A DNA stretch of 57,893 bases, the filler included, from Asterionella formosa (lineage: Eukaryota), in assembly GCA_002256025.1 (NCBI GenBank). It is 7 parts of 7 records of this genome, joined end to end, with 100 filler letters (N's around TTAATTAATTAA, not from the genome) between each part and the next. Parts side by side here need not be neighbours in the genome. Positions count along the whole stretch, not along the records: positions 1 to 8,192 come from NKIB01012306.1; positions 8,293 to 16,482 come from NKIB01012307.1; positions 16,583 to 24,771 come from NKIB01012308.1; 4 more parts are not named here. The stretch is one strand, 5' to 3'. Under the pieces are notes generated by a model that did not search any database, had not been told where the DNA came from, and saw only the letters and a program-made list of their open reading frames with translations. Below, in pieces: positions 771-24,871 of this stretch; the first letter of the stretch is position 1; each line of letters begins with the position of its first letter. A program made the translations under genes and the position numbers.

Positions 771-833
771 TGCTCGTCATCTACACACCGGTAGCTATGA
801 CCAACAGTCGACTGAACCCATGATTTCATTCTG

Positions 834-1144
834 CTATAATGAGCTGGACAGTATAGACTATTTGGAAGACCGATAGTTTGAATTGAACGATCAATGGTTA
901 TAAAGTTATGATCAATAAGTGTGAGATAGACATGGGTCTATCTATGAATTTATGCTCTGACAAATCATGCAAACAGCATTTGGGAAAATAGTTTGTTTGA
1001 TTACTCAAACTGAACAAACCTAACTAGTTTTCTTAGTAACTCACAATAAGAATCCAGAAACAAAAGATAAACCAAAAAATGTCTCTATCTATAATCTTCT
1101 TTGTCTAACCATAGATCTATCAACTAAATGGTAATACTTTAACA
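834..1144 (+). repeat. ~310 bp repeat, left copy, upstream of the tyrosine recombinase
   Basis: Reverse-complement match to 15543-15843, with shared blocks ggaagaccgatagtttgaa, taagtgtgagatagacatgggtctatctatga, atgcaaacagcatttgg, ctcacaataagaat and ggtaatactttaaca. Confidence 0.9.
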
Positions 1145-1329
1145 CCATGTAGTATATTACAGGTTGTGTGGACGAGGTATACTAGGTAGCTAGAGTACCT
1201 TGTACCAGTAATATTGGTAGTCAAGTGCCGGTGTAATAATGTCTAATACCAGTGGAGGTAATAAAATGAAGCAAGTATGTCCAGTTGATCAGTTATGATC
1301 TTTACAGGAAAATTTTCAATCTGGTTGAT

Positions 1330-4295: not shown

Positions 4296-5286
4296 TTGAC
4301 AACTTTCCAAATGTCATTTCCTGGATTTCATGCAAAGGATCAGTCGAACAAGAAACGTGACTTACTTCCATCGTTTACACTACACGACTTTATGTTTTCG
4401 GAAAAGAAGATGAAGAAACTTATGAAATCAATCAAAGATTCCTTTGAATACAGTCAAACATCAGATGAATTTGAACAGATTCATAATACTCCAGAAAAAG
4501 TAATGAAGCAAGTATGCCGATACAATAGTGGCAGAGATTGAAAAGAAGGAAAGATTGCTTTCGAAGAGGAAACCCAAACAGTTGCTCTTCACGGATGAAG
4601 ACTCTATTCCTACAGAGTCACAGTTCCATCCAGTGTCGTATTTTTCTCCTCATTCTCCTGAAATCGCTGATAATGAAGAAGAAATCAGTGATTCTCATTC
4701 ATTTGATGAACAAATTCATGCGATGAAAGAAAATACCGGCGGAAATGTGGGAGACATCACTTCTGAAGTAGAAATGGTTGAAAAGTTGCAAAACCAAGAA
4801 ATATGTCTCACTATTCGTCCAGAACATCAAGATGAACATCATGAAAGCAGAGAAACTATTCCATTTCTAAAAGAAAGGATATTTAAGAAAAAGTCCAAGC
4901 TAGATCAAGACCTCGAATTCAAGAAGATCAATGCAGACAGAGATGTGATGCTGGCTAAGGCAGTTGATGCACTGAGTCGAGAACGAAGTTTGAAGCAAAA
5001 TATTGAATCTTTTTCCAAATCATACATGGAAGAAAAAGAATTTCTTTGTAAAATCATCGAGAACAATCCCGAAGGCAGCTAGTTTTGTGAAGAGTCGGCA
5101 TGTGAAATGTGTAGAGTTATTATGCAAAAGCAAACTGCATTTTCCTTGAGTTTGCCGAAAACGCATGGACAACTAAAATTGTGGAAAGAGTTGTACACAC
5201 GAATTTATTATGTAACTACTAAATATGCATTGGATTCTATTAGATCCATACAAAATCAACGTCGTCATCAATGTCCCGTTGATTAA
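4296..5286 (+). pseudogene. Unknown cassette gene A, copy 1 (Cys-cluster C-terminus, disrupted)
   Basis: ORFs 4296-4541 and 4528-5082. Reading through the TAG at 5080 gives ENNPEGS*FCEESACEMCR...PKTHGQLKLWKELYTR..KYA, which is homologous to 21650-21830. Confidence 0.6.
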
Positions 5287-7053
5287 TGCGTTCATTGCAA
5301 TCAATATTCTTCTCAGGAACATTTGGTTGAAGTGGTTCAACATATTGATGCATATCCTCTTCACTTACATTGGGAAATGAGAAGTATGAGTGTGGGTAGA
5401 TGATATTTGTTGTGGAAGTAGCAATTCCACTAGGATTCCTTCCATATTCAGATCGATTATTTTTGTGAAAGTCCAGTGTAGATTTCCTTATAATAACCGA
5501 GTAAATCATCAGTCCCTTGATCAGTGAGACAATTTGAAACTGAACTTTCTTCCCTCACACTTTTTTTGATAAGTGGTTTCCCACCAATGTCGACAAAATC
5601 AGTAGAATGACGAATATCGTTCTCTGAAATATCATGCGTATCTGGATTGAAACCCAAATATTTTTGTTGCCATCGGAATTCTCCTTTCAGCACCAAGAAG
5701 AAAAATGTTTCTGTACTGGCATTGATCAGCGAACCAACAAAACGAGATTGCAATTCACATTGTGCCCGAAGATTGAGTTGAAATTTGGTTTGGTCACAGC
5801 AGATTTGTCTCCTGTTAAAAATGGTTCTCCACAGCTTGTCCTGCCTATAAAATACACTGGAGCAAGAACTACACGCCAGACTTGGTATCCTTGGCTTCCC
5901 CTGTAAATGTCCTTTGACTGCGCAAAACGATAAATCATGAACTCCCACCTAATAAAGTCATCAATATCCATAGTAGTCTGGAAGTTATATTCTGTTAGAC
6001 CAGCTGGTGTGTCATGAATTATGTTAGCATTTTTAAATTGAAGCATATTTGATAAGAATATAATCACCGACTCAAAACATCATGCTTTCGGAGCATCTCC
6101 CTGCAAGAACTTACCTAAGATTCCTTTCAATTGATTATTCAATACATTCTGACATTCTCTCAACGTTTTAATGTACATGCCACCAAATGTTGATTTGATG
6201 TAATCTAAACGTGCCTTGTTGGTTCATTCAACGGTCTGATTTATCGTAAGTAGTGCATCAGAACCATTCCATATGAAATCGACAAGCTCTGGCTGGGTCA
6301 CTCTTTACTTCTTTGCCTAACTCCGGTTTCACTGTGTATAGCCGAGTTAGGCAACATTGGGCAAACCAATCCTGTTTGTGATTGGAAATGCCTTTCATAC
6401 TACTTGGACCAGATAGGGCGGAATGTTTGATTCTCTTTTGGGACCAGAAAAAAGCACATTAGATTGATATTCTGTTTTACAGTACCTGCAATTCACGAAC
6501 TATAACCTCAAACTTACATGTTCACAGCAAAACTTCTTGGTCTTGAAAATAAAACTCACAACCTTTGTTACAATTGATGGATCGGTTCAATTTTAGCTAA
6601 GCGGGAATGACGTTCTGATATGGCTGCTGAAATTGAAGATTCTTGATAACCTCGTATAAATGTTTTTCACTCAGTTTGTCATGTACTTGTTGGTCCGTGC
6701 GATTAGATAAATTATGATATGGTACCATGTCGTCCATCTGCATCCGGGAGTTATTAATGGTATCATCAACAGGAGCCATTTTTCTTGTATCAACAACTGA
6801 AAAAGAGACATCGCTCATCATCGCTTTCAGTATCAATTATGGGATCCTTTGTACTAGTAGCTGATGGTTTCCCCATCGATGATGGGGTAGTAACCCCACT
6901 AACTCTTTGTTGCCGATTGGGTTCCTTTGGATAATCGCCTATTCGCTTTTTCTTTGTTAACTCATTTTGGTACTTGCTTCTTTGTTCCATACCGGCAGTA
7001 TTTGACACATGCCGCTTGTTTCCATGAATCTCTTTATGGGCTTTTGAAGACAT
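5240..7053 (-). pseudogene. Unknown cassette gene B, copy 1 (apparently spliced, disrupted)
   Basis: A chain of minus-strand ORF fragments. Peptides GISNHKQDWFA, ELGKE, PELVDFIWNGSDAL and RFAQSKDIYRGSQGYQVWRVVLAPVYFIGRTS match 22471-23220. GTAAGT donors lie at ~6517 and ~6114. Confidence 0.65.
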
Positions 7054-7260
7054 TGTACTACTAGATAACTGTTGTCGTTGTCTTCCTTAAAGTTCGATGA
7101 TCTTAAAATCAGGTGTTCCTAGCTAGCTGCAATGAAATGAATCATCAGCCACTACATAGAATATTTTACACTGTCTAGATATGATACCATAAAACCAACA
7201 GTGCTATTTACATTATCATATACAAAATCAGAACCGAGTTTGAGTAATAGCATATCTTGT

Positions 7261-7592
7261 TTTCAATTATACAATTATACGATCCTGAAACTATGATGCT
7301 TTACTGTCCTACTGTAGTAGCAACAGTCTTGAACATATGATGTTCTGTTGCTTGCTTACTACTCCGACTATCCTTTTTCAATTTTATGATCATATGATCC
7401 TGAAACTATGATGATTTACTGTCCTGCTGCAGTAGCAGCAGTCATGAACATATGGTGCTCTGTTGCTCGCTTACTACTCCGACTATCTTTTTTCAATTTT
7501 ATGATCATACGATCCTAAAACTATGATGATTTACTGTCCCACTGCAGTAGCAACAGTCATGAACATATGGTGTTCTGTTGCTTGCTTACTAC
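7261..7592. repeat. Tandem repeat, ~115 bp unit x ~3
   Basis: gatcct(g/a)aaactatgatg recurs at 7281, 7396 and 7511 with conserved unit sequence between. Confidence 0.95.
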
Positions 7593-8192
7593 CTGGTACT
7601 CTGACTACCCCCAGTATATCACTTCCTACCTGCTACTGGTACTCTGTATATATATGATAAAATGTTATTGTTGTATGATGTACCGGTACACATGAAGAAC
7701 TCCCGCCCCAAAAAGGGGCTTAAACAATTTTCTACCAAAATCCTAGCGTATAAATAATGATACAAATGGGTTATGACTTACACCAATTGAATGGTGTAAA
7801 TAATTAGTTCCAATGGACGTAGAAAATATTGATGCAAACAAATTTCAAAAAAACAGTACCGGTACACAAAGTCGAGGAAAACAATGGACATATCGTGCAT
7901 TGAATATTTTCGAATTATCTATATGCAAATATGATCATCTCAACAATACCAGACGTTCCATATTGAGAGTGCCTATGATTTTTTATAAATGTACAACACT
8001 TGATATATTTATATATTTACAAATTTTATAACTATATACATGGCAAATATAAGCATTTGAAATCGTTCTGTCATGTTAACAAACAATGCCTGCTTCATGA
8101 AAAGAAATATCGTAGTAAAGCACATGACAAGAAAGGAAAGTTTACGCAATAACGAAAAACATTGTGGCTTCGACAAATTGCGTCTTCGAAGG

Positions 8193-8292
8193 NNNNNNNN
8201 NNNNNNNNNNNNNNNNNNNNNNNNNNNNNNNNNNNNTTAATTAATTAANNNNNNNNNNNNNNNNNNNNNNNNNNNNNNNNNNNNNNNNNNNN
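8193..8292. other. Scaffold join with artificial TTAATTAATTAA linker (also near 16527, 24816, 33094, 41378 and 49659)
   Basis: The same 12-mer, which gives stops in all six frames, sits in the middle of each 100-nt N run. Confidence 0.95.
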
Positions 8293-9539
8293 TATACAAA
8301 ATGGACAGTCAACGGCTTCCAAAACCACTCTGTCTTTATTGGTTGGTGGAATTCCTGTTACAGGTCGAAGGGACCTGTCCTCGATACTACTTTCTCATCT
8401 ATTGGGCCCTCGTGCTGGCTGTCCTCCTTCCCTTATCTCCGTCAAAATTCAAGTTCCCCGTCGTTGCTCGCAAGTGGTTCCACGGGATAGCTATTCTCCT
8501 ATTTCTTCCTCCCACCTACGATGACCCAATTTTCATGTCACTGGTATATGCCGTTGCCATGTGTGTGCTCATGGTCGTAGAGCATGTGCGGAAAATTACA
8601 TCCTTCAACCATGTATACATACGTTATCTCGACGTGGATAAGGATGCAGCAGACAAAGTGGTGATTTCACCCATTACATTGATTGCTGGGTGTGCGATAC
8701 CATGTTGGATGTCTGCTATTATGGGGATTGACCGTACTAATGGCCTTGCCCTCTTCGGCATTCTCGTTTTGGGGGTGGGCGATAGCATGGCGGCCATTGT
8801 GGGAACACATTACGGAAAAACAAAATGGGGGAGAAAACGAAGTGTTGAAGGTAGCTTCGCCATGTTGATGAGCATGTTTGCGATTTGTTGGGCGTGTGGA
8901 AGGGAGGATTGGACTATTGCTGTGATAGTATCCACAATCCTAGAAGCAGTAACTTTTCAAATAGATAATCTGGTCTTGCCGTTGACTGGAGCGACTGTCG
9001 TGATGATACAATCTGGATGGGCTGCTTCATACGACCTTTTGAATAACTTGGTCTTACCGGTGATAACAGTTGGCATAGCTGTTGCTGTAATCAACATCTT
9101 TTTTAGCAATCATCACAATGCTTCTGATCGTCAGTCAAAAGTCGCAAAAGAGTTGGGTTCAAAACTTCGTTTAGAAGACTCAGACTTAAACAAGCATAAA
9201 GAAGATTTCACATGCGAGAAAATGTTCATCTCCAACGTTCCAAGGGTTAGTACTGACGAATCTGAGGCATCCACTTATTTAAGGTTGCGGCCTCTTGGTA
9301 TAAAGTTAAATGGAAGAATCATCAAAACGCTTCCAATCATCTGTCCAAATTCACTGAAGAGAATCGTCAATCGAGTTTGGTTCAAATTATCCAGTCGGGT
9401 TGACATTCTTATTTCTGGATGCTCGGACATTCATAATAATAACGAATTCACACGCAAGGAAACATTTTTGTGCGATGTTCAAAGGGTTAGTACAGAAGAG
9501 TCCATCGATTTGAACCTTTGCAGCATGGGACAAAGTTAA
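8293..9539 (+). CDS. DOLK: Dolichol kinase, C-terminal part (5' end lost in the gap), with an atypical C-terminal extension
   Basis: Motifs ARKWFH, GVGDSMAAIVG.HYGKTKW..KRSVEGS and EAVTFQIDNLVLP are typical of SEC59/DOLK. The kinase homology ends near 9020 but the frame stays open to 9539. Confidence 0.9.
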
Positions 9540-9931
9540 TACAGCACAAAAGAATTGAAGCAGAAGGTATCACTAAGATTCTGTCTGCAATGAAGACTCG
9601 TTCATCCAATGCTAATGTGCAACAATTCAGTTGTAGATCACTCCGGAATTTGGTTTATGATGATGACAATCACCAGGTGAAGATTGTTGAAGCAGGAGTT
9701 ATCACTATGACTCTATCTGCGATGCAGAATCATTCCTCCAATGCTAATGTGCAACACAAAATTTGTGCAGCACTTGGTACCTTGGCTACTGATAATGAAA
9801 ACATAGTGGCGATTGCCAGTGCTGGTGGAAAGGTCGCAATTGAGTCTGCTATTCGAAATCACGCATCCAATGCTGGTGTCAATGAAAAAGCCCATGAAGC
9901 ACTAAGCATATTGACCCAAAGTGGGAATTGA
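9540..9931 (+). CDS. Armadillo (ARM) repeat segment, about 3 repeats, with no ATG of its own
   Basis: Repeated ~42-aa units: GITKILSAMKTRSSNANVQQFSCRSLRNL, GVITMTLSAMQNHSSNANVQHKICAALGTL and GGKVAIESAIRNHASNAGVNEKAHEAL. Confidence 0.75.
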
Positions 9932-10299
9932 TCCTAGATGCATTCACTTGTCAAATAGATAATCTGGTCTTGCCGTTGACTGGGGCGACTGTTGTGATGG
10001 GAATTGATCATTATGGTATTATGTAGATTGATGAATTATGTTGATAAGCAGTTAGTGTCCTTTTTGTTAAACTCCGGAATTTACATGTATGCTCTTCTTT
10101 ATTAATTTTTTTTCTGATTGAGCAAAATTTTCGTGTAGTGAGCAAAAAAGTTCGGGATAGAGCAAAAATGATAAGGTTAGAGCAAAAGCAAAATGTCATG
10201 GGCAAAGATAAAACCAAAAAAGGCGCGCAGATAGCGCAATCACCGCACCTTCCAGGTACCAGGGTATCTGGTCGTTTTGACTTGCTATCTTGAGGATAA

Positions 10300-12800
10300 C
10301 ACAAAGCATGAGCTACTCATTTTTCTATAATTTTCACAAGCGAAATTTCCGTCAAGTATGGCTTGTCTCTTTACATTCAAATATTGTGAAATGACTGCCT
10401 CATTTGGATGGACAATGTATCTTTCTTGAGGGATAAAGTATATCTTCTAATTTCTACCTTTTCCAGAACATATAATGCCATGATCAGATACTGCTTGTAT
10501 TCCTCGTCCAAGTTCATTTGTAGATAGGGCGAAGACAATGGCAGGAATTCCATGTGGGTTGCTTACATCTCTGTAGTCCATTTTAAGCCTAAGTATAGAC
10601 CCAGTACTAGTTGCCTTTTGCCTTGACTGCATATGTCTGCCTTTCATGTATTTGCTTTGATCCTTCTGTCGTTATGCTCTAACATATTGTGCATGTTTTT
10701 GTCTTGCATTTTTCTTTGATTTCATGGGAGTTTCTTTAACTGCTCTTTCCATAGCATGTCTTGCATATCTGTTCTCATTCCCATGACATTATAATCTTGC
10801 TACCATTTTATTTAGCATTAGTTCACCATCGAAATCCACTTGCTCAGTATTCACTTGCTGTTTTATTGGAAACAGTATCATGTAGGTCACTTGGTAAGAT
10901 CAATTCAGTATTGAAATGATTAACCATTTCATTGAACATTGTTACAGCAAAGGGGCCATAGTTATGTGGAGAAATAGCTGATATGTTTACAATTTCTGGT
11001 TAAAAAATCGAACCCAGGACAAGGCAAGCAATCGGGCCACAATTGTACCCATTGCTAACCTGTGGCAATGTCAACTCCATGGAGACAGAGTCATTGGGGT
11101 CACTGGGAAAAAGGGTCAAGTCATAAATGGATTCCACAGCAGCACGGAATCTACTGCTAGCTAGCTGCCACATCCATGCGCTCTTGGATAGTTGTGCACC
11201 TGTGGATGCTGTCTGTGGTGTTTGGCATGATGGGATCAAAATCAATCTAAAAAAGGTTTCATATGCAGAAACATCATTTTTGGCCCAACCACATTGTCGG
11301 TTCAGAAATGAATTAAATTCTCCAAGGTAGTTGGTCCATTCTGGACGGAGTTTTCCCTTTTGAACTTCACTTGCAAGTACACTGTTCATTACACGTTTCA
11401 CAAGTCTGTTGATGATATCGACTGAACCCTGATCACTGGGCTTTCGGGGCCTACCAGTGACTGTCAGTATTGTTTGATTCCACCTTTTCAAATACCCACA
11501 ACTTGTTCAGCTGTGAACTCAGAACAATTATCTGTGTGAAAGATATGCGGATATCCAACCAATCCAAAGAGAGAGTTTAACTCAAAGCAGACATACTTTG
11601 CATTTTTGTTTGGAATAGCTCTTAAATAGCATAAGACAGTGAAGTGATTCCCCTTCACAGCCATAATCCATTGCATTACGTGACCATAAACATTGCGTCA
11701 TTCATTGGCACGATAATCAATTAAGTCAATTTGCATGCAATCACGGAATTCACCAGAATGTATAGGACATTGGGCTCCCCTAGATTTCGGAATTTGAGGA
11801 TGCGCATGAATACACACAGGACACACACTGATAAATGCATTCACATGTTGTATTATGATATTGTAAAATGACGATTAACCTCTCTCCATGTAACAGATGA
11901 TTTCAAGTGACTAAGACTGTAGTGAGCATCACATATGGCATCAAACATTTCCTTGTATCAAAGAAGCTTGCTCCCCACATTATCTTGTCCTTCTTTCACA
12001 CTGTCTCTCTTGATAACATAGAGGCTTTTCATTAGATTGCCTTCCACATCTTTCTTTGATCTCACTGTATACTTTTTTACAAGTGAATAACCAATTTGAT
12101 GCTGTCGCCATATCTCTGGTATATCCCAGTTTTCAATAATGTACACAACTTCATTCTATTTCTCAGCAGTCATGTCACATGATCTAGTTTTTCCTGTTCC
12201 TGTTGTGTTATATGCAATTTCATTGTATTTCTCATCAGTCATGTCACATGACCCTGCTTTTCCTGTTCCTGGTGTGTTCTTTTCCCTTGTTCCCGCTATA
12301 ATTCTTGAAGCTTTTTCTTTGTTCTTGATTTAGCATTTTCGATTCTCTTTGCAGCCCATGTTGCAGTTGTTGTTCCGGCCTCCACTTTTGGAGTTTTTTC
12401 TGCTACTGTTGCCTTTTCATTCCTTGTTGCAGCCGTTGCTCCAGTTTCCGCATCAACTGGAGTTGTACCTGTGCCCGCCATTTCATTCCTTGTTGCTCCA
12501 GTTGTTCCGGTTTTGGCATTGACAGGAGTTGTACCTGTGCACGCCTTTTCATTCTTTGTTGCTGTTGCTGTCGCTGTTCCGGATTCCGCATTGACTAAAG
12601 TTGTACCTGTGTATGCCTTTTCATTCCTTGTTGCTCCAGTTGTTCTGGATTCTGCATGATTGACTGGAGTTATACCTGTGCACGCCTTTTCATTCTTTGT
12701 TGCTATCATTGCTCCGGTTTCCGCATTGACTGGAGATGTGCCTGATCCCGCCTTTTCATTGAAAATACCAAAAGCTACAGCGTTGAAATGCATGTGAAAG
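10300..12800 (-). mobile_element. Decayed Ginger/KRBA2-SCAND3-type integrase element with a Ulp1-like protease motif
   Basis: H2C2 zinc motif (DAHYSLSH...CPVC, ~11810-11940), QIDLIDY, HIFHTDNCSEF, TGRPRKPSDQGSVD.IN, then LPQVSNGYNCGPIAC (C48-like Q..GYDCG) and GSILRLKMDYRD. Many stops and frameshifts. Confidence 0.8.
12370..12760 (-). repeat. Coding tandem repeat (~66-69 bp, 22-23 aa) upstream of the integrase core
   Basis: AT(R/K)NEKA(C/Y/G)TGTTPVNAE(S/T)G repeats about 5 times in ORF 12296-12793. Confidence 0.9.
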
Positions 12801-13969
12801 GATTATCACGAAATCATTTTTATGTTTCTACATTTTGTGTGAATAATCAGCCAATGTTCCCCTTTTCTATTCTTGTCTCAATGCTCTTGATGCATGCCTC
12901 CTGCCTCCCCTCAATGGTCGTGAGGATGCATGCCTCTCTCCCATTTCTCTTCAATGCTCTTGAGGATGCATTGCATCCTGCCTTCAAATCTCTTTGATGC
13001 ATGCCTCCTGCCTCCCTTCCACTCAGATTCTGAAACTCATCTGACTTCATGCTGCGAATACCATTTCCTTTTGATCCGATTCTGTTTTATCTATTTTGAT
13101 TTCCTAATCATAAAAACAATGAGAAGGAATTACTCGCTCGTTAGCCATGTCTTGTTTATATCTCAACACTGCAGTCCCGTTTAAGCATGCTCCACTTACA
13201 GGAAATCGATGATCTTTTCGCATAATTCTGTAAATTAATGTGTCAGTCAATGATCACATAATTACAAATCATTAAACCGTTCCACCAATGTCATTTATAA
13301 CTTACAACAAAAATCTTTGATTAAAATTATCCTGAAAGATTGAAAAACAAAAATGTGTCAGTGATGTTCTAACAGCGGCTCATTGATCCAACAAGAGCAT
13401 TTACAAGTTTTTGGTCGACATTGGTGGTATCCCGCTGAATGCAAAATGTGCTTTTGAATTGCTAGGGAAGGAGGCAATCATTTAGTCTTTGTGAACCCAA
13501 CAATTGATCACCTTGGCATGTACTCTTGACATACCAGAGCTAGATTCCATTCACTCTTCCATTTTCAATCCTTCTAAGCCGCAAGGTTTATCATCATTGT
13601 GTGCGTTGAAGTGTCGTTCTTTCAGTTTTCCTTGTCACTGCAGGGCAGAGATTATCTTTCATTTCAAGATAACATGATTTCAAATGTATACATTTATAAA
13701 AATTTGAAAACGTATAAATATATACACATAATGTTTATACTATTATCAATTAAGCTTATACATATTCAAATATATACAATGCATGTGGATATCATTGTTT
13801 CCATGACCTGATGTACTGTCTTTAAATTTTTTCACATCAATTCTTGTACCTCCAAGTAAGTAATTTAATTAAGCCCCTCAATTAGCGGGAGTCATACGAA
13901 ATTTTTCATATGGTACAAATTGTTACATATTTACCGGTAGATGAATCGCTCGAATCAATCTTTATGATT

Positions 13970-14284
13970 TACAGATCATACCTTGTCCTGGTTAGAAATG
14001 ATTGCCAATAAATAAGATCACAGATGACAATTTTTAGCTTTTTTGATCTTACTTTTAACATGAATATATCTTACTACTAAAAATTACAGATCATACTTTC
14101 CAATTAGATATGATTGCCAATAAATAAGATCACAGATAACAATTTTTAGCTTTTTTGATCTTACTTTTAACATGAATATATCTTACTACTAAAAAATTAC
14201 AGATCATACTTTCTGGTTAGATATGACTGCCAATGAATAAGATCACAGATAACAACTTTTAGCTCGTTTGATCTTACTTTTAAC
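13970..14284. repeat. Tandem repeat, ~114 bp unit x ~2.7
   Basis: acagatcatac...tgccaat(a/g)aataagatcacagat...tttagct..tttgatcttacttttaac starts at ~13971, ~14086 and ~14199. Confidence 0.95.
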
Positions 14285-14288
14285 CTAA

Positions 14289-14520
14289 GTACAAGGTGAC
14301 AATAGATATCAATGTCACCTTGTTTGTACGAGAACAACGTGTTATTCTTGCGTCCCCTCCATCACCAATAGACAATACGACTGTCGTCACCTGGTCTGTA
14401 CAAGAACGTGTTGTAGCCTGAGTACGAGGTGACAATAGATACCAATGTCACCTTGTTTGTACGAGAGAGTGTTATTGCGTCCCCTTCATCACCAACAGAT
14501 ACCAATGCCACATTGTTGTA
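14289..14520. repeat. ~133 bp tandem repeat containing an 11-bp-stem hairpin
   Basis: acaaggtgaca-atagatatcaa-tgtcaccttgt at 14291-14323, with a near-identical copy at 14424-14456. Confidence 0.85.
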
Positions 14521-14597
14521 CGACTACGTGATATTTCGTACCCCCAATCACCTCTAGATACCGGCATACCAAAGTCACTCCCTAACCCTATTCCTAT

Positions 14598-14856
14598 CAT
14601 GGGCATGATTCAAATTCAAATCAATAGTACACTTAGTACGTTTACCTACAAATATCTGTGCAACATACCGGTATATAGGTGTCACTATGATGGACATGAT
14701 TTGAATTCAAATCAATCGTATGCATACTGCTGGTACGTACGTTTACATGCAGAAAAATTTGTGCTATATACCGGTAGGTATCCCGATGATGGGCATGATT
14801 AAAACTAAAATCAATCGTGTACATATGTTTACATACAAAAAATCTGTGCAACATAT
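14598..14856. repeat. Degenerate tandem repeat, ~90-100 bp x 3
   Basis: atgg(g/a)catgatt..aa.t.aaatcaat starts at ~14599, ~14690 and ~14789, each followed by tttac..caaa...tgtgc. Confidence 0.8.
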
Positions 14857-15542
14857 TAGTACTACCAGGGTACCAGGTAGTACAATAGATGATACAGTAG
14901 TACCTGGTACTAGTACTCACACACAAGTAGACTCGAACGTGAATATGCACATACCGGTATGAATATCTATCATGTCTTCTAAGCTATAGAATGCTACAGT
15001 AGCTATGTACACATACCCATGTACGACTGTCCTACTCATGCAACACGCATTCAGAATGCGGTTGTTGATGTTTGCAGCCAGTGATGGTATACATGTTAAA
15101 ATTCATGTATGATAAATATTATTCATATTAGATGATAATCGAATTTATATGATCATATGATCGCCATTATAAGATTCATCACACGAATTAGATGTTTTCT
15201 ATTTGCAGACGGTGAGCAATCAAAAGATTTAGTTGTGCATTGACTTCTATTGAAGATTCACTGCAAGTAGTTATTTGACAGGAGAGATTGCTATCACTTG
15301 CTCGTCCTGCTGCTATCTAAATAAATCTAAGTTTTGATAGAGAAAAGAGGTTTTGGGTGAAATAAAAATTACCCTAAAATTAGATAGGAGGAATCACGAG
15401 ACCTGCGTCAGAAATTTATTTACTTACAGCTAATTTATTTTAAGGAACAAAATTACTCACCGGGTTTTGAGTTCTCATATCATTTCTGCTGAATAAAAAA
15501 ATTCAGCTGAAATGACGTAACAAATCGTTGCATCTTTTCCAA

Positions 15543-15843
15543 TGTTAAAGTATTACCTTTTTGATAGATCTATATTGTTAGACAAAGAAGACTATAGATA
15601 GAGACATTCGTTTCTCTTTGCGTTTCTATATTCTTATTGTGAGTTTACTAATCTAGTTTAGGTTGTTCTGTTTGAACAAACAAACAAACTATTCTCCAAA
15701 TGCTGTTTGCATTTCTAGAAACATACAATCATAGATAGACCCATGTCTATCTCACACTTACTGATCATAGGTTATTAACCATGATCATTCATTTTCAAAC
15801 TATCGGTCTTCCGAAATAGCTTATATTGTCTGGCTCATTGTAG
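15543..15843 (-). repeat. Inverted copy of 834-1144, possibly the end of a non-autonomous Crypton-like element
   Basis: Colinear reverse-complement match over ~300 bp. Confidence 0.9.
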
Positions 15844-16111
15844 GCGGAGTAACAAGGTATAATGTGTGGTTGGTGAGAGCATGGTACATCAAAGTTGACT
15901 CATTCGAATCGTTTGACTCGTTTGACCCCGAGTCCTAACTACGTAGATGAGGTGCTCACTTTAACAGTCCGACACTATCGCCTATTCTTGTTTTTTAGCT
16001 TCACCTCAATCCCAATCGACTCGAGATCTTGACATCCTCTTCTTAGGCTTCATCCATTAGCTCTACAATCGATTGCAGGAGACGACGAGATCTGAACTTT
16101 TTTGTTAATTG

Positions 16112-16482
16112 ATGCATCCTGTTTTAGCGAGCATGTCTGAGAAATATTCGGTAATACCGGCTGTACATTACCAGTTACACGAAGTACTCAATCGGTTGAT
16201 TCCGAATATATTGATGATTGAAAGCTATCTATGGTTTTTGGTTCTGTTGTCCTTCTACGCGATGCAGGTAAAGCAGTTGTCGGTGACGAATGTCATAACC
16301 ATCTTTTTATTATTCGGAAACTTGTTTTTGCACTTTTCAATGTTTCAAATGAACCCAACAATTAAAGCCACTTGGAGGTCCCCAAGCAGCGCATCTCAAG
16401 GAGATGCTCAGGGAATCATCATGAGCGCTGTGTTGCCACCACTGGTCATGTTGGTCATGCAGGAACCCGGACCTTTTACAGC
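16112..16482 (+). CDS. Membrane protein N-terminus, probably the N-terminal part of dolichol kinase, truncated by a gap
   Basis: Hydrophobic helices followed by WRSPSSASQGDAQGIIMSAVLPPL, which resembles the N-terminal R....SGI..GAV.LP motif of eukaryotic dolichol kinases. Confidence 0.55.
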
Positions 16483-17817
16483 NNNNNNNNNNNNNNNNNN
16501 NNNNNNNNNNNNNNNNNNNNNNNNNNTTAATTAATTAANNNNNNNNNNNNNNNNNNNNNNNNNNNNNNNNNNNNNNNNNNNNACCAATCATTGCAATGAG
16601 AGCATTGTTGAACATTTTGTACCCACTCAAGATATTGGATATAGAAACATAGAACCATTTTTAAATATAGTTCTAAATTTCGATGCATTTCATTCTATTT
16701 TAGATAGTGATTTCGATGAGAATTACGATCATGTTAAGATAGATGTATGACAAAAGTATACACATCATAGGCCCAAATTTAACTAATTGTATGATGCAAT
16801 GGTATTATAACTATGATAATATCATCATACTTCAAGCTCGGTAAAAGTTTTCAGCATTATCATAATTATATGATACATTGATCATATTTTTGATGCAAAA
16901 ACTATCATATATGTAAAAATCCTGTGCCACTTAGCGTACAATATCCTAGATCCTGTATGCATGACAGTTTTTATTTGTAGACGTGTGTGCAACTTGTTCT
17001 CTTAGGTTGACACTGAAGTATTCAAATAGGGGTTAGTCGAGATCTCTGCTGATAGAGTTTGGTTAAATCTATGTAAGCCTAAACCTATAGGTGTGTCTGT
17101 TGCTGAGCAAGATCACTCCCTCTCCCACACCAAGGGAAAACCTCTCACCTATGAAAAGTTTGGATATGACGAATTTCAATTCATTCAGTGGTAGCTTTGG
17201 TGATGGAGGAGTGATTACGTGTTCATCACGCAATCTTGCTACCGGTACCGGAATGTAAGTTGACAAAAGAAATACGAGAAAACATGGAAAACGAGGTAAT
17301 ATTTTCAAAATTAAATAGTATAAATACATGAGGAAAAATACATGAATGGGTTAAGACCACTAAAATGCAAAATGAATGACTTATAAAGTTCGATATCAAA
17401 ACAAAGTAAACCTTAAATTGTCAAAGTGATTCAACCAGCTAGTTAGTAAATAAGTCGTTTTTGACTGGTATACGTAAGAGTACTGCATGTATATACTAGC
17501 TAAGATACGACAAGCTGGTCTATCTGGTCACATATTTCTTTGTCGCCCGCATCCAGCGCTGGCCGGTTAATTGTATAGGAAGAAGATTTGTTCTTCGAGG
17601 TTCCATTGAGTTGAGTTACTCGGACGCGATGTAGCAGGTACCTGGTACCATGTAACAACAGCACTACCGTATGTACTTAATTCTCCTGAACCAGAAATGG
17701 GATGCGAACCCCAACGAAAACCACGCCAGATTTGACAGCATAAAATTGCTTTTCCAAATGACATTGATGTTCATTTGGAACACATTCTGAACTTCTTAAA
17801 ACACCGATAATTCCAAG

Positions 17818-18483
17818 ATGACGAGTGAAGCAACACCTGAGACTATTGCTCTATTCGGATTGACGGGTAGTACTGGCAGCCACTTTGTTAAGCTCGCACT
17901 TGAGAAAGGCTACAAGGTAAAGGCCTTAGTGCGATCACCTGAGAAGGTCGAAATCAAGAACGACAACCTTGAGATAATCAAAGGTTCCTTCACAGAAGAA
18001 GAGTATATCAAGAATACAGTTGCTGGGACTGATTATGTTGTCTGTATGGCCGGAGGCAAGCTTGGAGATGCAAAGGCCTATCCTAAGGATTTGATGCTCA
18101 ACTTTGTCAACACGCTTGTTCCTCTCATGGAAGCCGAAAACACGAAAGCATTTCTCTATCAAGCTGGTGCCTTTTCCCATGATTTCAAAGGTAAAATTCC
18201 TATGGTGATGAAATTCCTCCGAGGCTCCGCTGGTCGAATGATTGGTATTCTTCCTAATGTCAAGGACAATGACAAGGTGATTCAGTTCCTTGGTTCGCCT
18301 GACATCAAAACTCCTGTTATTATCACTCTACCTGGGGGGATATCTGAGAAGCCTTCCATGAAAGAACTTCATCTTTCTAGCAAACCTAACATGGGAATGA
18401 TCACTTTTTATGATCTTGCCAAGTGCTCGTTGGCAGCAATCAAGGACGAGAGCGCTTATGGCAAGTGTCACTATGTTGCTTAA
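17818..18483 (+). CDS. NAD(P)H-binding Rossmann-fold protein (flavin reductase / biliverdin reductase B-like atypical SDR)
   Basis: Intact 221-aa ORF with IALFGLTGSTG...ALEKGYKVKALVRSPEK. Confidence 0.9.
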   Translation: MTSEATPETIALFGLTGSTGSHFVKLALEKGYKVKALVRSPEKVEIKNDNLEIIKGSFTEEEYIKNTVAGTDYVVCMAGGKLGDAKAYPKDLMLNFVNTLVPLMEAENTKAFLYQAGAFSHDFKGKIPMVMKFLRGSAGRMIGILPNVKDNDKVIQFLGSPDIKTPVIITLPGGISEKPSMKELHLSSKPNMGMITFYDLAKCSLAAIKDESAYGKCHYVA

Positions 18484-18664
18484 CTTTCAACATCGTTTCC
18501 TTGCATTTATGTTGTGTAAAGGTGTGGTGGAAAATGAATCGTAAGGTTGCTGCTTTCAGTATTTATGATAGCTTTTTCAATCTAATTTCCCAGTGAATTC
18601 AGGGTATGCAATGTGGCATGCGTAAGCTTAATTCTTCTAGCTTCAACATGTAGAGAATGACGAA

Positions 18665-19567
18665 CTATATTTTTGTGTCTAATAGGCGTATACAGAAAAT
18701 TTCTTCCAGAGCTTCTTTCATATGCACTGCAAAGTCTGATACAGTCAAGGGTTGCAACAGAAAATCGTTGATGCAGGCTACATCTCGTCCTTCCAAACCA
18801 CAGGGTACAATTCCTTTAAAGTTTGCCAGACTCGAACGTTCGACATTGACAGCGAGCCCGTGCATGGTGATCCATCTTCTTGCTTTGATGCCAAGTGCGG
18901 CGACCTTTCGGTTGTCGATCCACACTCCAGTAACATCAGTTTGCCGCTCGGCGCCATCAATGCCAGCTTTCTTGAGCGCCAATAGCACTGCCTCCTCGAG
19001 GGCACGCATGAACCAGTGTATATCCTGATTATAGCCCCTCAAATCTAATATTGGATACACCACCAGCTGGCCTGGTCCATGATAAGTGACTTCACCTCCC
19101 CGATCCATACGTACAACGTCAATGTCTACAGACAGCACAAAAGATGGATCTGATCCCGTTCCAAGAGTGTAGACTGGCTCGTGTTGGAGCATAATAATGG
19201 AATCTCCGTGTTCAGTTCCGAATTGAGCTTTGTCTGCCTTGATTCGCTCAAAGTGCTTCTCTACGATATACTTTTGAATATCCCAAGCATCTTGAAAGGG
19301 AACAGGATTTCGAGCAGACCAGTCAAGCAAAGCCACCTTTCGACTAGGCAAATCACGCAAGTGGTCTAGTTTTTCAAAAAATCCCAGCTGCTGAGGAGAC
19401 ATACCCAGTCGTGACTGCAGACGACCTACGGGATGCCGAAGTTCCGTGATGCACATTCCTAGCACAAGAGTCTGATGGGTTAGAGCGACTGCTAATGACA
19501 TTGCAGTCCAAAAAGCCCTTTTTGACAGCCGCGGCACTAGCCCTTGCATTCTATCCTTAATATTCAT
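18665..19567 (-). CDS. LIP2: Lipoyl(octanoyl)transferase LipB/LIP2 with an organelle-targeting N-terminal extension
   Basis: Motifs LQHEPVYTLG, RGGEVTYHGPGQLVVYPILDL, KVAALG, WITMHGLAVNV and IVPCG. The exact start codon is uncertain. Confidence 0.95.
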   Translation of the reverse strand: MNIKDRMQGLVPRLSKRAFWTAMSLAVALTHQTLVLGMCITELRHPVGRLQSRLGMSPQQLGFFEKLDHLRDLPSRKVALLDWSARNPVPFQDAWDIQKYIVEKHFERIKADKAQFGTEHGDSIIMLQHEPVYTLGTGSDPSFVLSVDIDVVRMDRGGEVTYHGPGQLVVYPILDLRGYNQDIHWFMRALEEAVLLALKKAGIDGAERQTDVTGVWIDNRKVAALGIKARRWITMHGLAVNVERSSLANFKGIVPCGLEGRDVACINDFLLQPLTVSDFAVHMKEALEEIFCIRLLDTKI

Positions 19568-19974
19568 GACTTCGGAAGGATGTCAATCCATAATTTGCAT
19601 ACAATTAGACCAGGATGGTACCAGGGTACATGCCAACAATTCAACCTCCAGTGCAGCCTTATATGACCGTAGTGAAAGCTAGTACAATAGCAGCCAACTA
19701 CCACAGTGCACACAGCTAGCGAAACAGAATGCATGTACCAGTATGCATACCGGTACAGCCCGGATGTCATAATGTCAGTACCTGGTGGTACGTACCTACC
19801 ACCTGAGGTACATATGATTAGTTTATGATAAATACCGGTATACGGGTTTATACCGGTGTGTGTAAAAGAAATACTCGGAGTACAAGAGAGAATGGAAAAT
19901 ATTGCGTATCCATACTGGGGAGCATACTGTAAATACCGGTATACATGGCCAGTTACTTATACCTACCAGTAGTC

Positions 19975-20592
19975 TGTTAAATTCTTCTGCAGTCTGACTG
20001 CAACACTAGCTCTTTCTAGACAAGCTCAGTGTATTAAAACCTTCTACTCTAATCCCACCTTATTGTGAGCTTATTTGATCTATCTTGTATAATCGTTCAC
20101 ATGACCAATTATGGTTCTCTTCCCAAATTTGTATATAGATTTTCATTGTGTTGTTAGAAATTCAATTCTCAACTGCCAACTCNNNNNNNNNNNNNNNNNN
20201 NNNNNNNNNNNNNNNNNNNNNNNNNNNNNNNNNNNNNNNNNNNNNNNNNNNNNNNNNNNNNNNNNNNNNNNNNNNNNNNNNNNNNNNNNNNNNNNNNNNN
20301 NNNNNNNNNNNNNNNNNNNNNNNNNNNNNNNNNNNNNNNNNNNNNNNNNNNATATTGTGGATATTCAATGCAATCTGCATTGCATATATGCCTTCCTTCA
20401 TTGAAATATTGATTACTTAGAACATTCTACATTCGAATATTTACCTTGCTTGGTTTGCTGTTTAGTTCTTGGCAATCAATGCTGTTCAAATTCTCACATC
20501 ATTTGGCTTCAATACAGTATTTTGGCTTGGAATATTATACAAGATTGATTAGTTCGGCTGAAATAATATGCACACAGTACTAGATCTTGAAA
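19975..20592 (-). repeat. 3' LTR of a Copia element (contains a gap; the left boundary is tentative)
   Basis: Preceded on the minus strand by a polypurine tract GGGGAGGA (20593-20600). 20463-20592 matches 24875-24998. Confidence 0.7.
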
Positions 20593-20599
20593 TCCTCCC

Positions 20600-21265
20600 C
20601 AAATCATTTCCATCAATCCATTGTCCCATTGCAAATATCATATGCGTGCGACTCATGCACCTTCTGAGTTACATTCTTTGAAAGCAGACCAGGTCACTAG
20701 GGTTTTCACATGTCTGTACATAGACCACAACAATATATCCATCTTCAGTCTTCTCACATATAAAATGACATCTGACGTCAATATGCTTTCTCTTTGTTGA
20801 TCCAACTTGTTGGTTTTTCCTTAGGAAGATCGCTCCAGTGTTATCCTCCGCGATTATTGCTGGCGATTCCACATAGTAGGCCTCATCCAATAGATTTGTA
20901 ACAAATGTAGTATCCTTGACTCCATCACTTAGGCTGACATACTCAGCTTCCATGCTTGATGTAGTTTCAATGTTCTGTTCTTTGGATGACCAAGTCACCA
21001 AGGAGCTCTTGCTCCAATAGTTCCGAGATATGCACTTGTACTTTTGTGAGTATCAGGTTTAATTGCAAATGCACTGTCAATAACATCCATTGGACGTATT
21101 TTGGGGGGGGGGTTCGCATCTTCATACGTAGATGCTTCTTGTCTGCGTATAAGAATCCCAACTGATGTTCAACCGCCTTCCAATGAGACTCTCCTGGATT
21201 CTCCAGATGCTGACAATTTTCGACAAGCATTGGCACAAATTAGAGATATCATCCTCTTCACACCC
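20600..21265 (-). mobile_element. Ty1/Copia pol remnant (end of RT plus RNase H)
   Basis: DISN, HLENPGESHWKAV, VTWSSKEQ....SSMEAEYVSLS, EDNTGAI, KHIDVRCHF and VQTCENPSD, all frameshifted. Confidence 0.93.
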
Positions 21266-21276
21266 CCGATTACCTG

Positions 21277-21976
21277 ATGGATGGAGATGATGATGACTTA
21301 GGTGCTGGTCTGATAGATTCTGTTGTCCTTCCAAGAAAAACAACAATTTCCAGTAATGGAAAGATTATAAACAATAATAATTCGTCAAGGATTGGTCATG
21401 AAGAGAAACATCCAGATGAAAATAAAGGAATCTTTGTTTGTGCTACCACTGAAGATCAACCTGTTTTCGAAAATAAAATTTCTGTTCAGGTTATTGTGGA
21501 AGAGATCAAGTTGTTGACGAACAAAAATGCCATAATCAGCCAGACCATGTTGGACCTTTCCTAATTCGTTATGCCTGATGACCGGGATAATCGAAATGGT
21601 ATTTTTATTGAATCATATGAAGCTGAAAAAGATTCTGTCAATAATTCCATCATGGAGAATCCCGAGGGCAGTTCATATGTAGAATAAAAATGCATGTCAA
21701 TTATGTCAACTCATGTCTCCCATTCCAACCTTCATGTATGTGAACATTCCCAAAACAAAGCCACAATTCGAGTGATGGGAAGTACTTTATTCTCGAACTT
21801 CCCAAGAAGTCTGTACTTATGCTGCAAAGACTTGTAACTTGCTACATTTCAAAAAAGAAATTGAGGAGTTTAAATCTCTTGCATATTGGGATTTTCAAAC
21901 AATTCAAAATCTCATTCAATTCATAACTCATGAACTCAATCCATCCAATGTGAGTGTTATTGTGGATGTTGATGAC
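21277..21976 (+). pseudogene. Unknown cassette gene A, copy 2 (5'-truncated)
   Basis: IMENPEGSS...NACQLCQ...IPKTKPQFE*WEVLYSR...TYA aligns with the C-terminus of copy 1. Confidence 0.6.
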
Positions 21977-22470
21977 NNNNNNNNNNNNNNNNNNNNNNNN
22001 NNNNNNNNNNNNNNNNNNNNNNNNNNNNNNNNNNNNNNNNNNNNNNNNNNNNNNNNNNNNNNNNNNNNNNNNNNNNNNNNNNNNNNNNNNNNNNNNNNNN
22101 NNNNNNNNNNNNNNNNNNNNNNNNNNNNNNNNNNNNNNNNNNNNNNNNNNNNNNNNNNNNNNNNNNNNNNNNNNNNNNNNNNNNNNNNNNNNNNNNNNNN
22201 NNNNNNNNNNNNNNNNNNNNNNNNNNNNNNNNNNNNNNNNNNNNNNNNNNNNNNNNNNNNNNNNNNNNNNNNNNNNNNNNNNNNNNNNNNNNNNNNNNNN
22301 NNNNNNNNNNNNNNNNNNNNNNNNNNNNNNNNNNNNNNNNNNNNNNNNNNNNNNNNNNNNNNNNNNNNNNNNNNNNNNNNNNNNNNNNNNNNNNNNNNNN
22401 NNNNNNNNNNNNNNNNNNNNNNNNNNNNNNNNNNNNNNNNNNNNNNNNNNNNNNNNNNNNNNNNNNNNNN

Positions 22471-23840
22471 GCTGACCCTACCTATAAAATGAGCTCGAGC
22501 AAGAACATCAATCCATAGGTGATAGGAATTGCTTGCTCTATCAATGAAACTTGCTTGTGCAAACGCAGACAACTTGCATGCCCAACCAATAAACTCCGAC
22601 GGACCAAGCTTGTTGAAGTAATCTTCTGTAACACCAACTAAGACAAGAAAATGTTTAGAACATCGAAGTAGAAGAATTAAAATGTTTTAACAGTAGAACA
22701 GAACATCACGATTGACTTACTTAAAATCGATTTAAAATGATTGTTGAATTTATTTTTTCATTCTCGCATTTTATTAATACACATACCTCCAAATGTAGAG
22801 TTGATATATTCTAAATGTGCTTTCTTGTTTGTACGTTCCATTCTATTATTATCCGGAAGTTGTGCATCACTTCCATTCCATATATAGTTTGAAATTTCAG
22901 GAACACTCTCTGGTGCTTCTTTGCCTAACTGCAGTTTGAGTTGAAATAACCGGGAGATAAATCGGTTTGCAAACCAATATGCATTCATATCCGATATCCC
23001 GACGGAGTTGCAACATGCAGATATGGCTGGGTGTTTTATAGCCTTTTTGGGAAATGCAAAAATAGGTTTAAGTGACATCCGTTCAGTAACAAAACATCCA
23101 TAGTAAGTCTGATGTATAGCAATACATCACTTACCTGTTCACAGCAAAATTTCTTGGTTTTTTGAAAATATAACTAACAACTTTTGCGACAACAGAGGGA
23201 TCCATTTTAGCTAAAAGCAAACGCCGTGCTGAATTTGCTGCTAAAGCGGATGAATCTTCATATCCACGTAAGGATGAAACTTGAACTGAATGTTGCCCTT
23301 TGTAGTGATTCAGGTCAAATGAGATTTTATAGTAAGAACAAACAAGGTCATTGTGGATTTCTTGAAGACTGGTGTGCTCATCTTTGAGTTTGTTGTGGAT
23401 TTCTTGAACACTGATGTGCTCATCTTTGAGTTTGTCATACTTCACCTGATCAATTCGATTGCAAAGCTTTTCAAAAACAAACGTAGGGTGGTGAATATTA
23501 TGGATGGTCTCAATAGCAGCAACCTTTCTTGAACCGGAGTCGAGTGAATCATCATCTTCATTCTCACTGGCAGAATTCAAGACAGAATCTACTGGAATAG
23601 AACGATTGAAACGAGCCTTTGTAGTATCAGTAGTAAAAGGAAGATTTACATTTGTTGGAATGTACGGAGTGGAAGGTGTGGCACCACCAAAGGCGTCATG
23701 AAGAGTATACTGCTTTTGCCTTTTATTAAAATAACTGGTAGGAAAGGAGGTTCCAAAATCAGCTAGTATCACTCGCTTTGGAGCCAAATCCGGCACTCTC
23801 CTTGCAACTACCGCATCTCGCACTGGTTTTGGAGGCATGA
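22471..23840 (-). pseudogene. Unknown cassette gene B, copy 2
   Basis: GISDMNAYWFA, QLGKEAPESVPEISNYIWNGSDAQL and AFAQASFIDRASNSYHLWIDVLARAHFIGRVS match copy 1. There is a coiled-coil N-terminal repeat KLKDEH.S.QEIHN, and GTAAGT donors at ~23134 and ~22720. Confidence 0.65.
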
Positions 23841-24871
23841 TTGCATAACAGGTGTGGTGAGGAATGACCAGAAGCATATGATGAAGTGTCGCTAAAAAAT
23901 AAGGGAAATGGGGTATCATAATGTAAATGCTCTTATAAGTACCGTTGCGATCGACAAATAACATACTGGTAGCTACTTTCACGACACTTATGGATATAAA
24001 GAAGGTGTGCCTATCTATATATATATGTAGACAAGTGGAAAAGATCATACCTCCAGATACGTAGCTACATCAGCATATCATGTCCTTCCACAAGATGTGA
24101 ACAGTTGTTCATAACAACCGGTACCTTGTTACTACGTACTCCTCGCAGTCTTTACTTGTGAACATGATAGATGTAGATGAAATAGGGCCCTATTTACAAA
24201 AATGCATTTTTTAAATGTATTACTGTACATCACGATAACATAAACACTAGAATTAAGATCATAAACAACTAATCGTAAGATCATTTTACGCCAAATTTTG
24301 TACAACCGCAGTACGTATTCATACTTCGCATTCAAACCCAAACCTTTTTTTACGTATATGTCACATCCATGATGGGGATTAGTTCTATCATTAACTACAA
24401 CTCCATACCGGATTGTCGTACAACCTATATTTATACTTTATATTAGGTTGTGGTAAATAATGAACTCATACAGCATTGTATATATTCGAATATCACTTAC
24501 TGAAAATTTTACTCAATTATATTGTGACTCGTGTGGTGTACATGAATATGTCAGAATATTCAATTGTTGGGTTGACAGTAACTCAATGCGTGCATTCTCT
24601 TCAAGTGTTTATTTGCTTAGCTGTATATGCATACTTTCGGGGACAAATTCAATGTGAAGAAATGACGGTCGCGGTAAGTGCTGTCGTTGAATCAATGCTC
24701 ACAAGAATCACCTGTTAGACGTTCAAGTCATCATATGTCTTTGATAAATCATCATCTACATTGCACAGTATNNNNNNNNNNNNNNNNNNNNNNNNNNNNN
24801 NNNNNNNNNNNNNNNTTAATTAATTAANNNNNNNNNNNNNNNNNNNNNNNNNNNNNNNNNNNNNNNNNNNN

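Follow-up and report, generated by a model that had tools for sequence, protein, structure and literature searches.

What kind of genetic unit is a convergent pair of genes that a microalga carries in two diverged copies? The question is raised by a stretch of 57,893 nucleotides (filler included) from Asterionella formosa, assembly GCA_002256025.1, which we call the window. In it a gene A on the plus strand meets a gene B on the minus strand, once in copy 1 and again in copy 2. A preliminary description had set the pair down as an old mobile or virus-derived cassette of unknown class. That classification gives way to a known transposon group: on related contigs a transposase with the Pfam family PF18759 lies between A and B, which, by the criterion of refutation that the preliminary description had itself set, places the unit among the CACTA-related elements as a member of the Plavaka family. 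Plavaka belongs to the CACTA/EnSpm-Mirage-Chapaev-Transib (CMCT) group. On balance we consider it probable that A and B are accessory genes travelling inside a cut-and-paste DNA transposon of the Plavaka lineage, and that the window holds deletion derivatives of this element. The transposase of the relatives bears out the mobile half of the earlier statement, and the viral half found no support.

The window consists of seven chunks of ~8.19 kb joined by six N44-TTAATTAATTAA-N44 linkers at a spacing of ~8.28 kb; its features are collected in Table 1. Chunk 1 contains copy 1, chunk 3 contains copy 2, and because the chunks are joined by linkers, the two copies need not be neighbours, or 17 kb apart, in the genome. 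To compare them, the six-frame open reading frames (ORFs) of chunk 1 were searched against the window by tblastn, and segments on both strands confirmed two diverged copies of the convergent pair A(+)/B(-). Gene B is matched by six collinear minus-strand segments (6666->5900 versus 23271->22471; 39-91% identity over 11-56 amino acids; E 5.9e-10 to 4.4e-4), and gene A by a single plus-strand segment (5092-5202 versus 21686-21796; 32% over 37 amino acids; E 3.9e-5). The earlier remark that the copies are similar mainly at the protein level is right, because blastn finds only 6109-6656 versus 22715-23270, ~550 nt at 65% identity. All the peptide strings quoted in the preliminary description are present in the ORF lists, and the GTAAGT donors that it placed at homologous sites of the minus strand do begin there: those of copy 1 start at 6517 and 6114, those of copy 2 at 23134 and 22720. 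The window copies read as dead derivatives of two subfamilies, ~50% identical at the protein level, both of which keep the same A/B arrangement.

The identity of the unit is revealed by its relatives. A scan of metagenome contigs gave 224 pattern matches and 10 confirmed loci, two of the copy-2 type (L001 and L006, 94-98%) and the remaining eight of the copy-1 type (77-99%). Near-intact versions of copy 1 are carried by contigs L003 and L004. L004 is collinear with window 3953-8192 at 84-94% (blastn), plus 5,173 nt that lie between window positions 5201 and 5205. Its gene B is intact and encodes 558 amino acids in three exons (2470-3075, 3159-3474 and 3586-4340); two large ORFs of 374 and 786 amino acids, on the same strand as each other, occupy the middle; and an intact gene A of 729 amino acids follows on the opposite strand, giving the order B, transposase, A. 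From the blastn comparison, the L004 ORFs and the alignment, the 5,173-nt piece comprises the gene for the Plavaka transposase together with 1.27 kb from the 3' part of gene A. The point at 5201-5205 where A and B of copy 1 meet tail to tail is a deletion junction.

The assignment of the middle gene is carried by several features of its product. The segment L003:3150-4109 matches PF18759 with E 2.1e-15 and 57.2 bits versus a Pfam cut-off of 26.3; the whole 896-amino-acid L003 ORF gave no Pfam match, and neither did the frameshifted L004 pieces. PF18759 was found in 7 of 10 sequence relatives of the transposase, and five of the six that were rescanned exceed the Pfam cut-off. The ESM Atlas links the transposase to Plavaka clusters with a score of 0.97. 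In an alignment of seven sequences, GDTE (D448), C473 (of C470-x2-C473), H796 and H800 are invariant, the glutamate of ..LES is present in all six sequences that reach that site, and the first D (SDG/DDG) is present in 5/7 if the shifted D of P0022 is counted. A pattern of D, D, E, C-x2-C and H-x3-H is described for Plavaka transposases in Kojima 2025 (PMC12730594). The middle gene, which occurs on the related contigs only, thereby has the sequence signature of a Plavaka-family DDE transposase. The L003 and L004 transposase genes are 99.2% identical and carry different disabling changes: L004 has lost 1 nt in an A-run and gained 4 nt 160 nt later, which restores the frame, and L003 is free of these frameshifts and has a single in-frame stop elsewhere. 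Since the lesions differ, the family has been active recently.

Are the genes of the pair also expressed and spliced as predicted? We found 24 public runs, 20 of which contain part of copy 1, with five of the 20 recorded as RNA; they come from 13 studies and are labelled as algae, freshwater, lake, river and estuary metagenomes. The RNA evidence consists of assembled contigs from four runs (X15, X16, X17 and X19), compared with chunk 1 only; such contigs show presence and splicing, not expression level or strand, and stretches of chunk 1 uncovered in single runs (e.g. 7212-7355 in X19, X16 and X17) were excluded from interpretation. The joints 6003>6115 and 6434>6518 are present in contigs of X19, X16 and X17 (3/4 runs, two studies), with CT..AC ends on the plus strand that correspond to GT..AG on the minus strand, so that both predicted introns of copy-1 B are spliced out. 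In X15, whose listed contigs are ≤229 nt, neither joint was seen. For the other subfamily, public predicted proteins are of spliced and unspliced type. A word-indexed protein search with copy 2 exon 2 returned 12 public proteins in one cluster; P0001 and P0006-P0008 are without the first intron, their exons 1 and 2 being fused precisely where it was predicted, whereas it is retained in P0003, P0004 and P0011.

The RNA contigs of X19, X16 and X17 do not derive from the window copy itself. They are without the small insertions of the window and still have the 79 nt lost at 6657/6658; the insertions at 5460 and 5971 are absent from all four runs, that at 5784 is absent from X19, X16 and X17, and the 4 nt at 4506 are likewise missing from the RNA contigs. 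The source of this RNA is therefore an intact copy, ~93% identical, rather than the window pseudogene. The epithet "old" in the preliminary description accordingly fits the decayed window copies and not the near-intact ones, for which transcription and splicing are seen in environmental RNA.

The genes of both window copies have decayed into pseudogenes that bear frameshifts, stops and deletions (Table 1). In copy 1, residues 1-75 of L004 gene A align to 4284-4508 and residues 75-325 to 4510-5244 in a different frame (tblastn), and the insertions in gene B (+4, +5, +4, +3, +5 and +1 nt) are mostly small tandem duplications. In copy 2, the intact copy-2-type A protein P0023 aligns to gene A in two frames at 85-91%, and comparison with L006 and P0023 shows that the run of N stands in for no less than 1.2 kb of coding sequence. 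The gap may hold the remainder of A, the end of B and possibly a transposase.

Around copy 1 we found the candidate ends TA-CATCATA...TATGATG-TA, an inverted match of 12/14 between the A side and 7669-7682: TA followed by CATCATAG occurs at 3860 (+) and 4274 (+), and TA followed by CATCATAC at 7682 (-). The second, identical motif on the A side, at 4276-4283, is an alternative or subterminal site. The 9-mer TACATCATA occurs five times in the window (0.93 expected), four of the five within 3772-7682; CATCATAG occurs 10 times (2.84 expected; 0/100 shuffles reach 10), with 6/10 occurrences in 3749-7528 and three of them inside tandem units. The B-side end site and its flank are also present in L004, L007 and L009. 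In PMC12730594, PlavakaB termini are given as CATCA..TGATG, PlavakaA termini as TGT..ACA, and the target duplication as 2-3 bp; the candidate ends that bracket copy 1 would fit those of PlavakaB. A general inverted-repeat scan of chunk 1 found no long terminal inverted repeat (TIR), and a comparison of the far left of L004 with window 1-4320 gave only short inverted matches at chance level.

Upstream of gene B, just inside the candidate end, lies a tandem array of 115-bp units. The terminus-like motif CATCATAGTTTYAGGAT is present in every unit, and the units are likely subterminal repeats. Homology to the paralogous contig L010 begins inside this array, and there gene B stands behind an unrelated upstream gene, which places at least one copy, to judge from its flank, in another genomic context. 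A 303-nt piece at 7112-7413, comprising part of the array and sequence upstream of it, has no counterpart in L004 or in contigs of X15 and X17; this difference is a length polymorphism, not an intron. Short repeats of GGTACC type flank copy 1 on both sides, at 590-770 and 7590-7700, and directly precede gene B in other copies (loose ends of RNA contigs, TTTACCGGTACCGG.., at 7111 and 7578). A repeat of ~170 nt, 82% identical between 16763-16990 and L007 2066-2232, contains CATCATAG and ATGATACATTGATCATA, motifs that recur next to copy 1 (3735-3756); the repeat could represent a miniature derivative of this family or else a solo end.

To characterize the two proteins, we compared each ORF piece of both copies, the intact A and B and their relatives with Pfam. 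No family was found, in agreement with the preliminary description, whose author recognised neither protein. For gene A, a search of its profile against the sequences of the Protein Data Bank (PDB) gave 0 matches at E≤10, and the gene and its conserved part gave no Pfam match at E≤0.1 or E≤10, hence none to C48. Conserved between the A subfamilies are C19-x2-C22 (the CxxC motif, for which the preliminary description had proposed possible zinc binding) and C58, NNHFVHY (H153/H156), RD/NP at 170, and QPE.D.GWSCGPFT (Q249, C258). The order His...Asp/Asn...Gln...Cys is what we take to be the residue order of clan CE peptidases, with catalytic roles assigned by eye and not confirmed. ESM Atlas leads for A to C48 and C57 score 0.81-0.84 only, in the range of chance matches. 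An AlphaFold2 model of the conserved part, built from a two-sequence alignment, has a mean pLDDT of 32.8 and a low-confidence helix at 260-275. A THAP zinc finger was considered for the CxxC region and rejected, with no PF05485 match and no His at +3 after C58 in either subfamily. PIF/Harbinger, suspected from the string "IWNGSDA", was likewise set aside: the A and B pieces of the window, the loci and the relatives gave no Pfam match to DDE_Tnp_4 or Myb/SANT.

For gene B, a profile of exon 3 searched against 1.84 billion representatives gave 60 matches at E≤0.001, including 38 with E≤1e-10. The majority are fragments; seven longer relatives show 19-34% identity, and neither these nor the other B relatives have a Pfam family. 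Gene B is a member of a small unnamed family. The structure model of exon 3 has a pLDDT of 46.2, and Foldseek against PDB gave no match at E≤0.001. A MYST acetyltransferase was rejected for exon 3, since a PDB sequence search with the B profile yields three MYST chains and nothing else (E 0.55-0.59 over 37-65 residues), with no Pfam or Foldseek match; it may serve as a weak lead only.

The coding sequences bear the mark of selection. Ratios of nonsynonymous to synonymous substitution (dN/dS), calculated by the Nei-Gojobori method with our own script, are 0.42 for B exon 3 (dS about 1), 0.15 for B exon 2 and 0.38 for A between subfamilies, where dS is saturated; among copy-1-type copies they are 0.54-0.89. 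The former values show long-term constraint, as the preliminary description had supposed in speaking of selection at the protein level, and the latter are such as decaying insertions give.

Several observations weigh against placing A and B inside a Plavaka element. The transposase is nowhere in the window (tblastn with the three L004 transposase ORFs and P0013, E≤0.01), and its link to the pair comes from three contigs, L003, L004 and L005, which may all be one locus. The candidate ends are short (7 perfect bases, 12/14), are embedded in AT-rich sequence and came to light in a search close to presumed boundaries; an empty site was not encountered, which leaves the TA duplication a candidate only. 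No family could be detected for A or B, their structure models are poor (pLDDT 33 and 46), and the roles proposed below are guesses. X15 matches the damaged window version at 5784 and 6579, so a decayed copy may be present in an RNA library too. Record 22 of X19 has 1,364 letters between window 5197 and 5205, the sum of 87 nt and the 1,277 nt of A that copy 1 lacks; A and B therefore exist in poly(A) RNA as an intact pair, ~122 nt apart and without transposase. This record, too short to hold the transposase, invites another explanation: A and B would form an independent convergent two-gene unit (some other mobile element or a multi-copy selfish pair), a transposase unit would have landed in the 122-nt spacer between their 3' ends in the L003/L004 lineage, and copy 1 would result from excision with loss of adjacent DNA. 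Such a history also accommodates the expression of intact A and B without the transposase, and the three breakpoints (window, X19 variant and L007) that fall within ~15 nt of each other, 22-36 nt behind the gene B stop. This cluster may be a hotspot or a real unit boundary, and would likewise be explained by a transposase unit that had inserted and later left. Yet the 3.8-kb transposase piece (L004 4376-8188) is flanked by neither an inverted repeat nor a target duplication, the best inverted match, 12/14 at other positions, being at chance level. The A-rich microhomology ATAAT is found at both its sides, and the candidate ends of Plavaka type are located beyond A and B instead of next to the transposase. 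Internal deletion that removes the transposase is, moreover, the usual origin of non-autonomous derivatives, as in En/Spm and Ac/Ds. We therefore regard an independent unit as unlikely, though it is the strongest of the competing explanations.

The same outer flank on the B side is common to the window, L004, L007 and L009, so most of the copy-1-type contigs show one locus rather than many insertions. This counts against a mobile family and would suit ordinary host genes, duplicated as a pair by segmental duplication and now decaying with nothing mobile involved, as would the normal spliceosomal introns and poly(A)-selected transcripts of B. Ordinary host genes, however, would not have a Plavaka transposase between them in relatives, other contexts in L010 and L007, or fragments of the terminal motifs elsewhere (16763-16990 and L007 2066-2232). 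Nor are they expected to leave many damaged copies with dN/dS of 0.54-0.89, or 60 B-like public proteins that are mostly fragments in many clusters; we find this account very improbable. Descent of the pair from an integrated large DNA virus has still less to recommend it and is scarcely credible. The nearest ESM Atlas clusters for A do include two unnamed Nucleocytoviricota and the poxvirus protease C57, at the chance-range scores given above, and contig L002 joins B to oxygenase and helicase genes of virus or phage type. L002, however, diverges inside the B coding sequence and looks chimeric, B contains two introns of the spliceosomal kind, viral hallmark genes are absent from the vicinity of both copies, and the neighbour in relatives is a transposase. 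In L002 (2093-5467) the sequence exits gene B and continues into 2OG-Fe(II)-oxygenase-like and helicase-like ORFs, and protein P0035 is the fused reading; the contig is probably a chimeric metagenome assembly and was set aside.

How would a Plavaka element with A and B as accessory genes be organized, and how would the window copies have arisen from it? The complete element, as on L003/L004, would measure ~8.7 kb and comprise the CATCATA end, the 115-bp array, B (558 amino acids, three exons), the DDE transposase (~1,160 amino acids), A (729 amino acids, opposite strand, no intron) and the other, inverted end. The transposase, to go by its family, would cut and paste the element at these ends. 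B, which adjoins the repeat array, would most likely be a repeat-binding or chromatin-directed helper, by analogy with TnpA of En/Spm. A would most likely be a divergent Ulp1/adenain-type cysteine peptidase with an upstream CxxC, acting on host modifiers, a proposal drawn from its residue pattern only. A single 5.17-kb deletion would have removed from copy 1 the transposase along with the 3' two-thirds of A, and small tandem duplications, the 79-nt deletion and stop codons would have been acquired afterwards; copy 2, in which an assembly gap falls, would have decayed through stops and frameshifts.

It is instructive to compare this organization with known systems. En/Spm, a CACTA element of maize, encodes the TnpD transposase and the repeat-binding protein TnpA, both made from one transcription unit by alternative splicing. 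It shares with the present element a transposase accompanied by a second protein, subterminal repeats with a terminus-like motif, and frequent internal-deletion derivatives without transposase. The present element, in contrast, has its three genes apart from one another, with one on the opposite strand. B has no sequence similarity to TnpA, and a DNA-binding role for B is a proposal from analogy. PlavakaB of fungi (PF18759), as presented in Kojima 2025 (PMC12730594), resembles the element in the Pfam family and D, D, E, C-x2-C, H-x3-H residues of the transposase found on related contigs, in ends of the type CATCA..TGATG (here candidates, with a 2-bp TA as candidate duplication) and in carrying further genes next to the transposase. 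In fungi the cargo is a TET/JBP dioxygenase, whereas here it consists of two proteins without a Pfam family, and the host, to judge from the run labels (algae metagenome, freshwater or lake metagenomes), is a microalga rather than a fungus. Accessory genes and adjacent tandem arrays are reported for red-algal Plavaka in bioRxiv 10.1101/2025.02.11.637652. These giant elements also have several accessory genes (PAG1-3), a tandem array next to one of them, and mostly degenerate copies; unlike the present element they measure 17-19 kb, and they encode a DNA methylase plus SET (PAG2) and a ParB-like protein plus oxygenase (PAG3). A and B show none of the PAG2/PAG3 domains; PAG1 is described as a gene without known function. 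ULP1-like regions are reported in plant MULE (KAONASHI) and CACTA families in PMC2528002, where a gene resembling a cysteine protease, as A may be, lies inside a DNA transposon, frequently reversed with respect to the transposase. The domains of the plant elements can be recognised as Peptidase_C48 copied from host genes, whereas gene A has only motif-level resemblance. Among the papers listed on Plavaka, on diatom DNA transposons (by title) and on ULP-type proteases in CACTA elements, no description of A or B was found.

The surroundings are those of eukaryotic nuclear DNA, with host genes for Vps18, uroporphyrinogen decarboxylase, lipoyl transferase and a SET-domain protein. Adjacency across the linker points is not real; the L004 match to the window ends exactly at 8192, the end of chunk 1. 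Directly upstream of copy 2 gene A, the minus-strand ORF at 20669-21239 resembles, by eye, the RNase H and integrase end of Ty1/copia (..AEYVSLSDG..); it gave no Pfam match at E≤1. Dispersed repeats of 67-84% identity are present in other chunks (834-1144/15543-15843, 43533-43905/53173-53536 and 47826-48316/51348-53617), and the ORFs 44952-46398 and 51806-52180, with no Pfam match at E≤0.001, have the look of retroelement or transposon remnants, by eye only.

Table 1. Coordinates of linkers, candidate ends and gene remnants, in window positions unless a contig is named.
Feature	Position	Strand	Remarks
Linkers (44 N either side of TTAATTAATTAA)	8193-8292, 16483-16582, 24772-24871, 33050-33149, 41334-41433, 49615-49714		
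Candidate A-side terminal inverted repeat CATCATAGAAAA	3862..3873	+	TA before, at 3860-3861
Copy 1 gene A remnant	4311..5201	+	first ~305/729 codons; 4-nt insertion near 4506; in-frame TAG 5080-5082; cut off at 5201
Copy 1 deletion junction	5201..5205	.	L004 has 5,173 nt here (L004 4376-9548)
Breakpoint cluster	window 5205 / L004 4362-4376 / L007 2064		
Copy 1 gene B exon 3, pseudogene	5240..6003	-	+3, +5, +1 nt insertions vs intact L004
Copy 1 gene B intron 2	6004..6114	-	111 nt, GTAAGT...CAG
Copy 1 gene B exon 2	6115..6434	-	+4 nt tandem duplication near 6290; in-frame TGA after ..TINQTVE
Copy 1 gene B intron 1	6435..6517	-	83 nt, GTAAGT...AAG
Copy 1 gene B exon 1	6518..7053	-	ATG at 7053; +4, +5 nt insertions; 79-nt deletion at 6657/6658
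Tandem array, 2.9 copies of 115-bp unit	7260..7592	.	upstream of gene B; Tandem Repeats Finder
Candidate B-side terminal inverted repeat CATCATACAACA	7669..7680	-	TA outside, at 7681-7682
Copy 2 gene A remnant	21277..21976	+	ATG 21277; frameshift near 21685; in-frame TGA 21773-21775; enters N gap
Copy 2 N run	21977..22470	.	494 N exactly between A and B
Copy 2 gene B remnant	22471..23837	-	compared with P0008 and with L006 (94%)
Copy 2 gene B exon 3 part	22471-22637	-	
Copy 2 gene B intron 2	22638-22720	-	
Copy 2 gene B exon 2	22721-23042	-	in-frame TGA 22758-22760
Copy 2 gene B intron 1	23043-23134	-	
Copy 2 gene B exon 1	23135-23837	-	frameshift in A-run near 23160

Taken as a Plavaka element, the unit is real but a fairly ordinary mobile element with unusual cargo. 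What had been a cassette of unknown class becomes classifiable as a Plavaka transposon outside fungi and red algae, whose cargo differs from the TET/JBP and PAG genes described so far, and for annotation both window copies are to be masked as transposon pseudogenes, not host genes. It is conceivable, if rather doubtful, that A and B together make up a previously undescribed accessory module of CACTA-related transposons, with A a highly divergent Ulp1/adenain-type peptidase and B a repeat or chromatin partner of a new family, jointly countering host silencing. On that reading the intact, spliced, poly(A)+ A-B pair without transposase would suggest that the two genes also work in trans for non-autonomous copies or are nearing takeover by the host. 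If these proposed roles prove true, microalgal transposons would be seen to carry a helper or anti-silencing module of a new kind.

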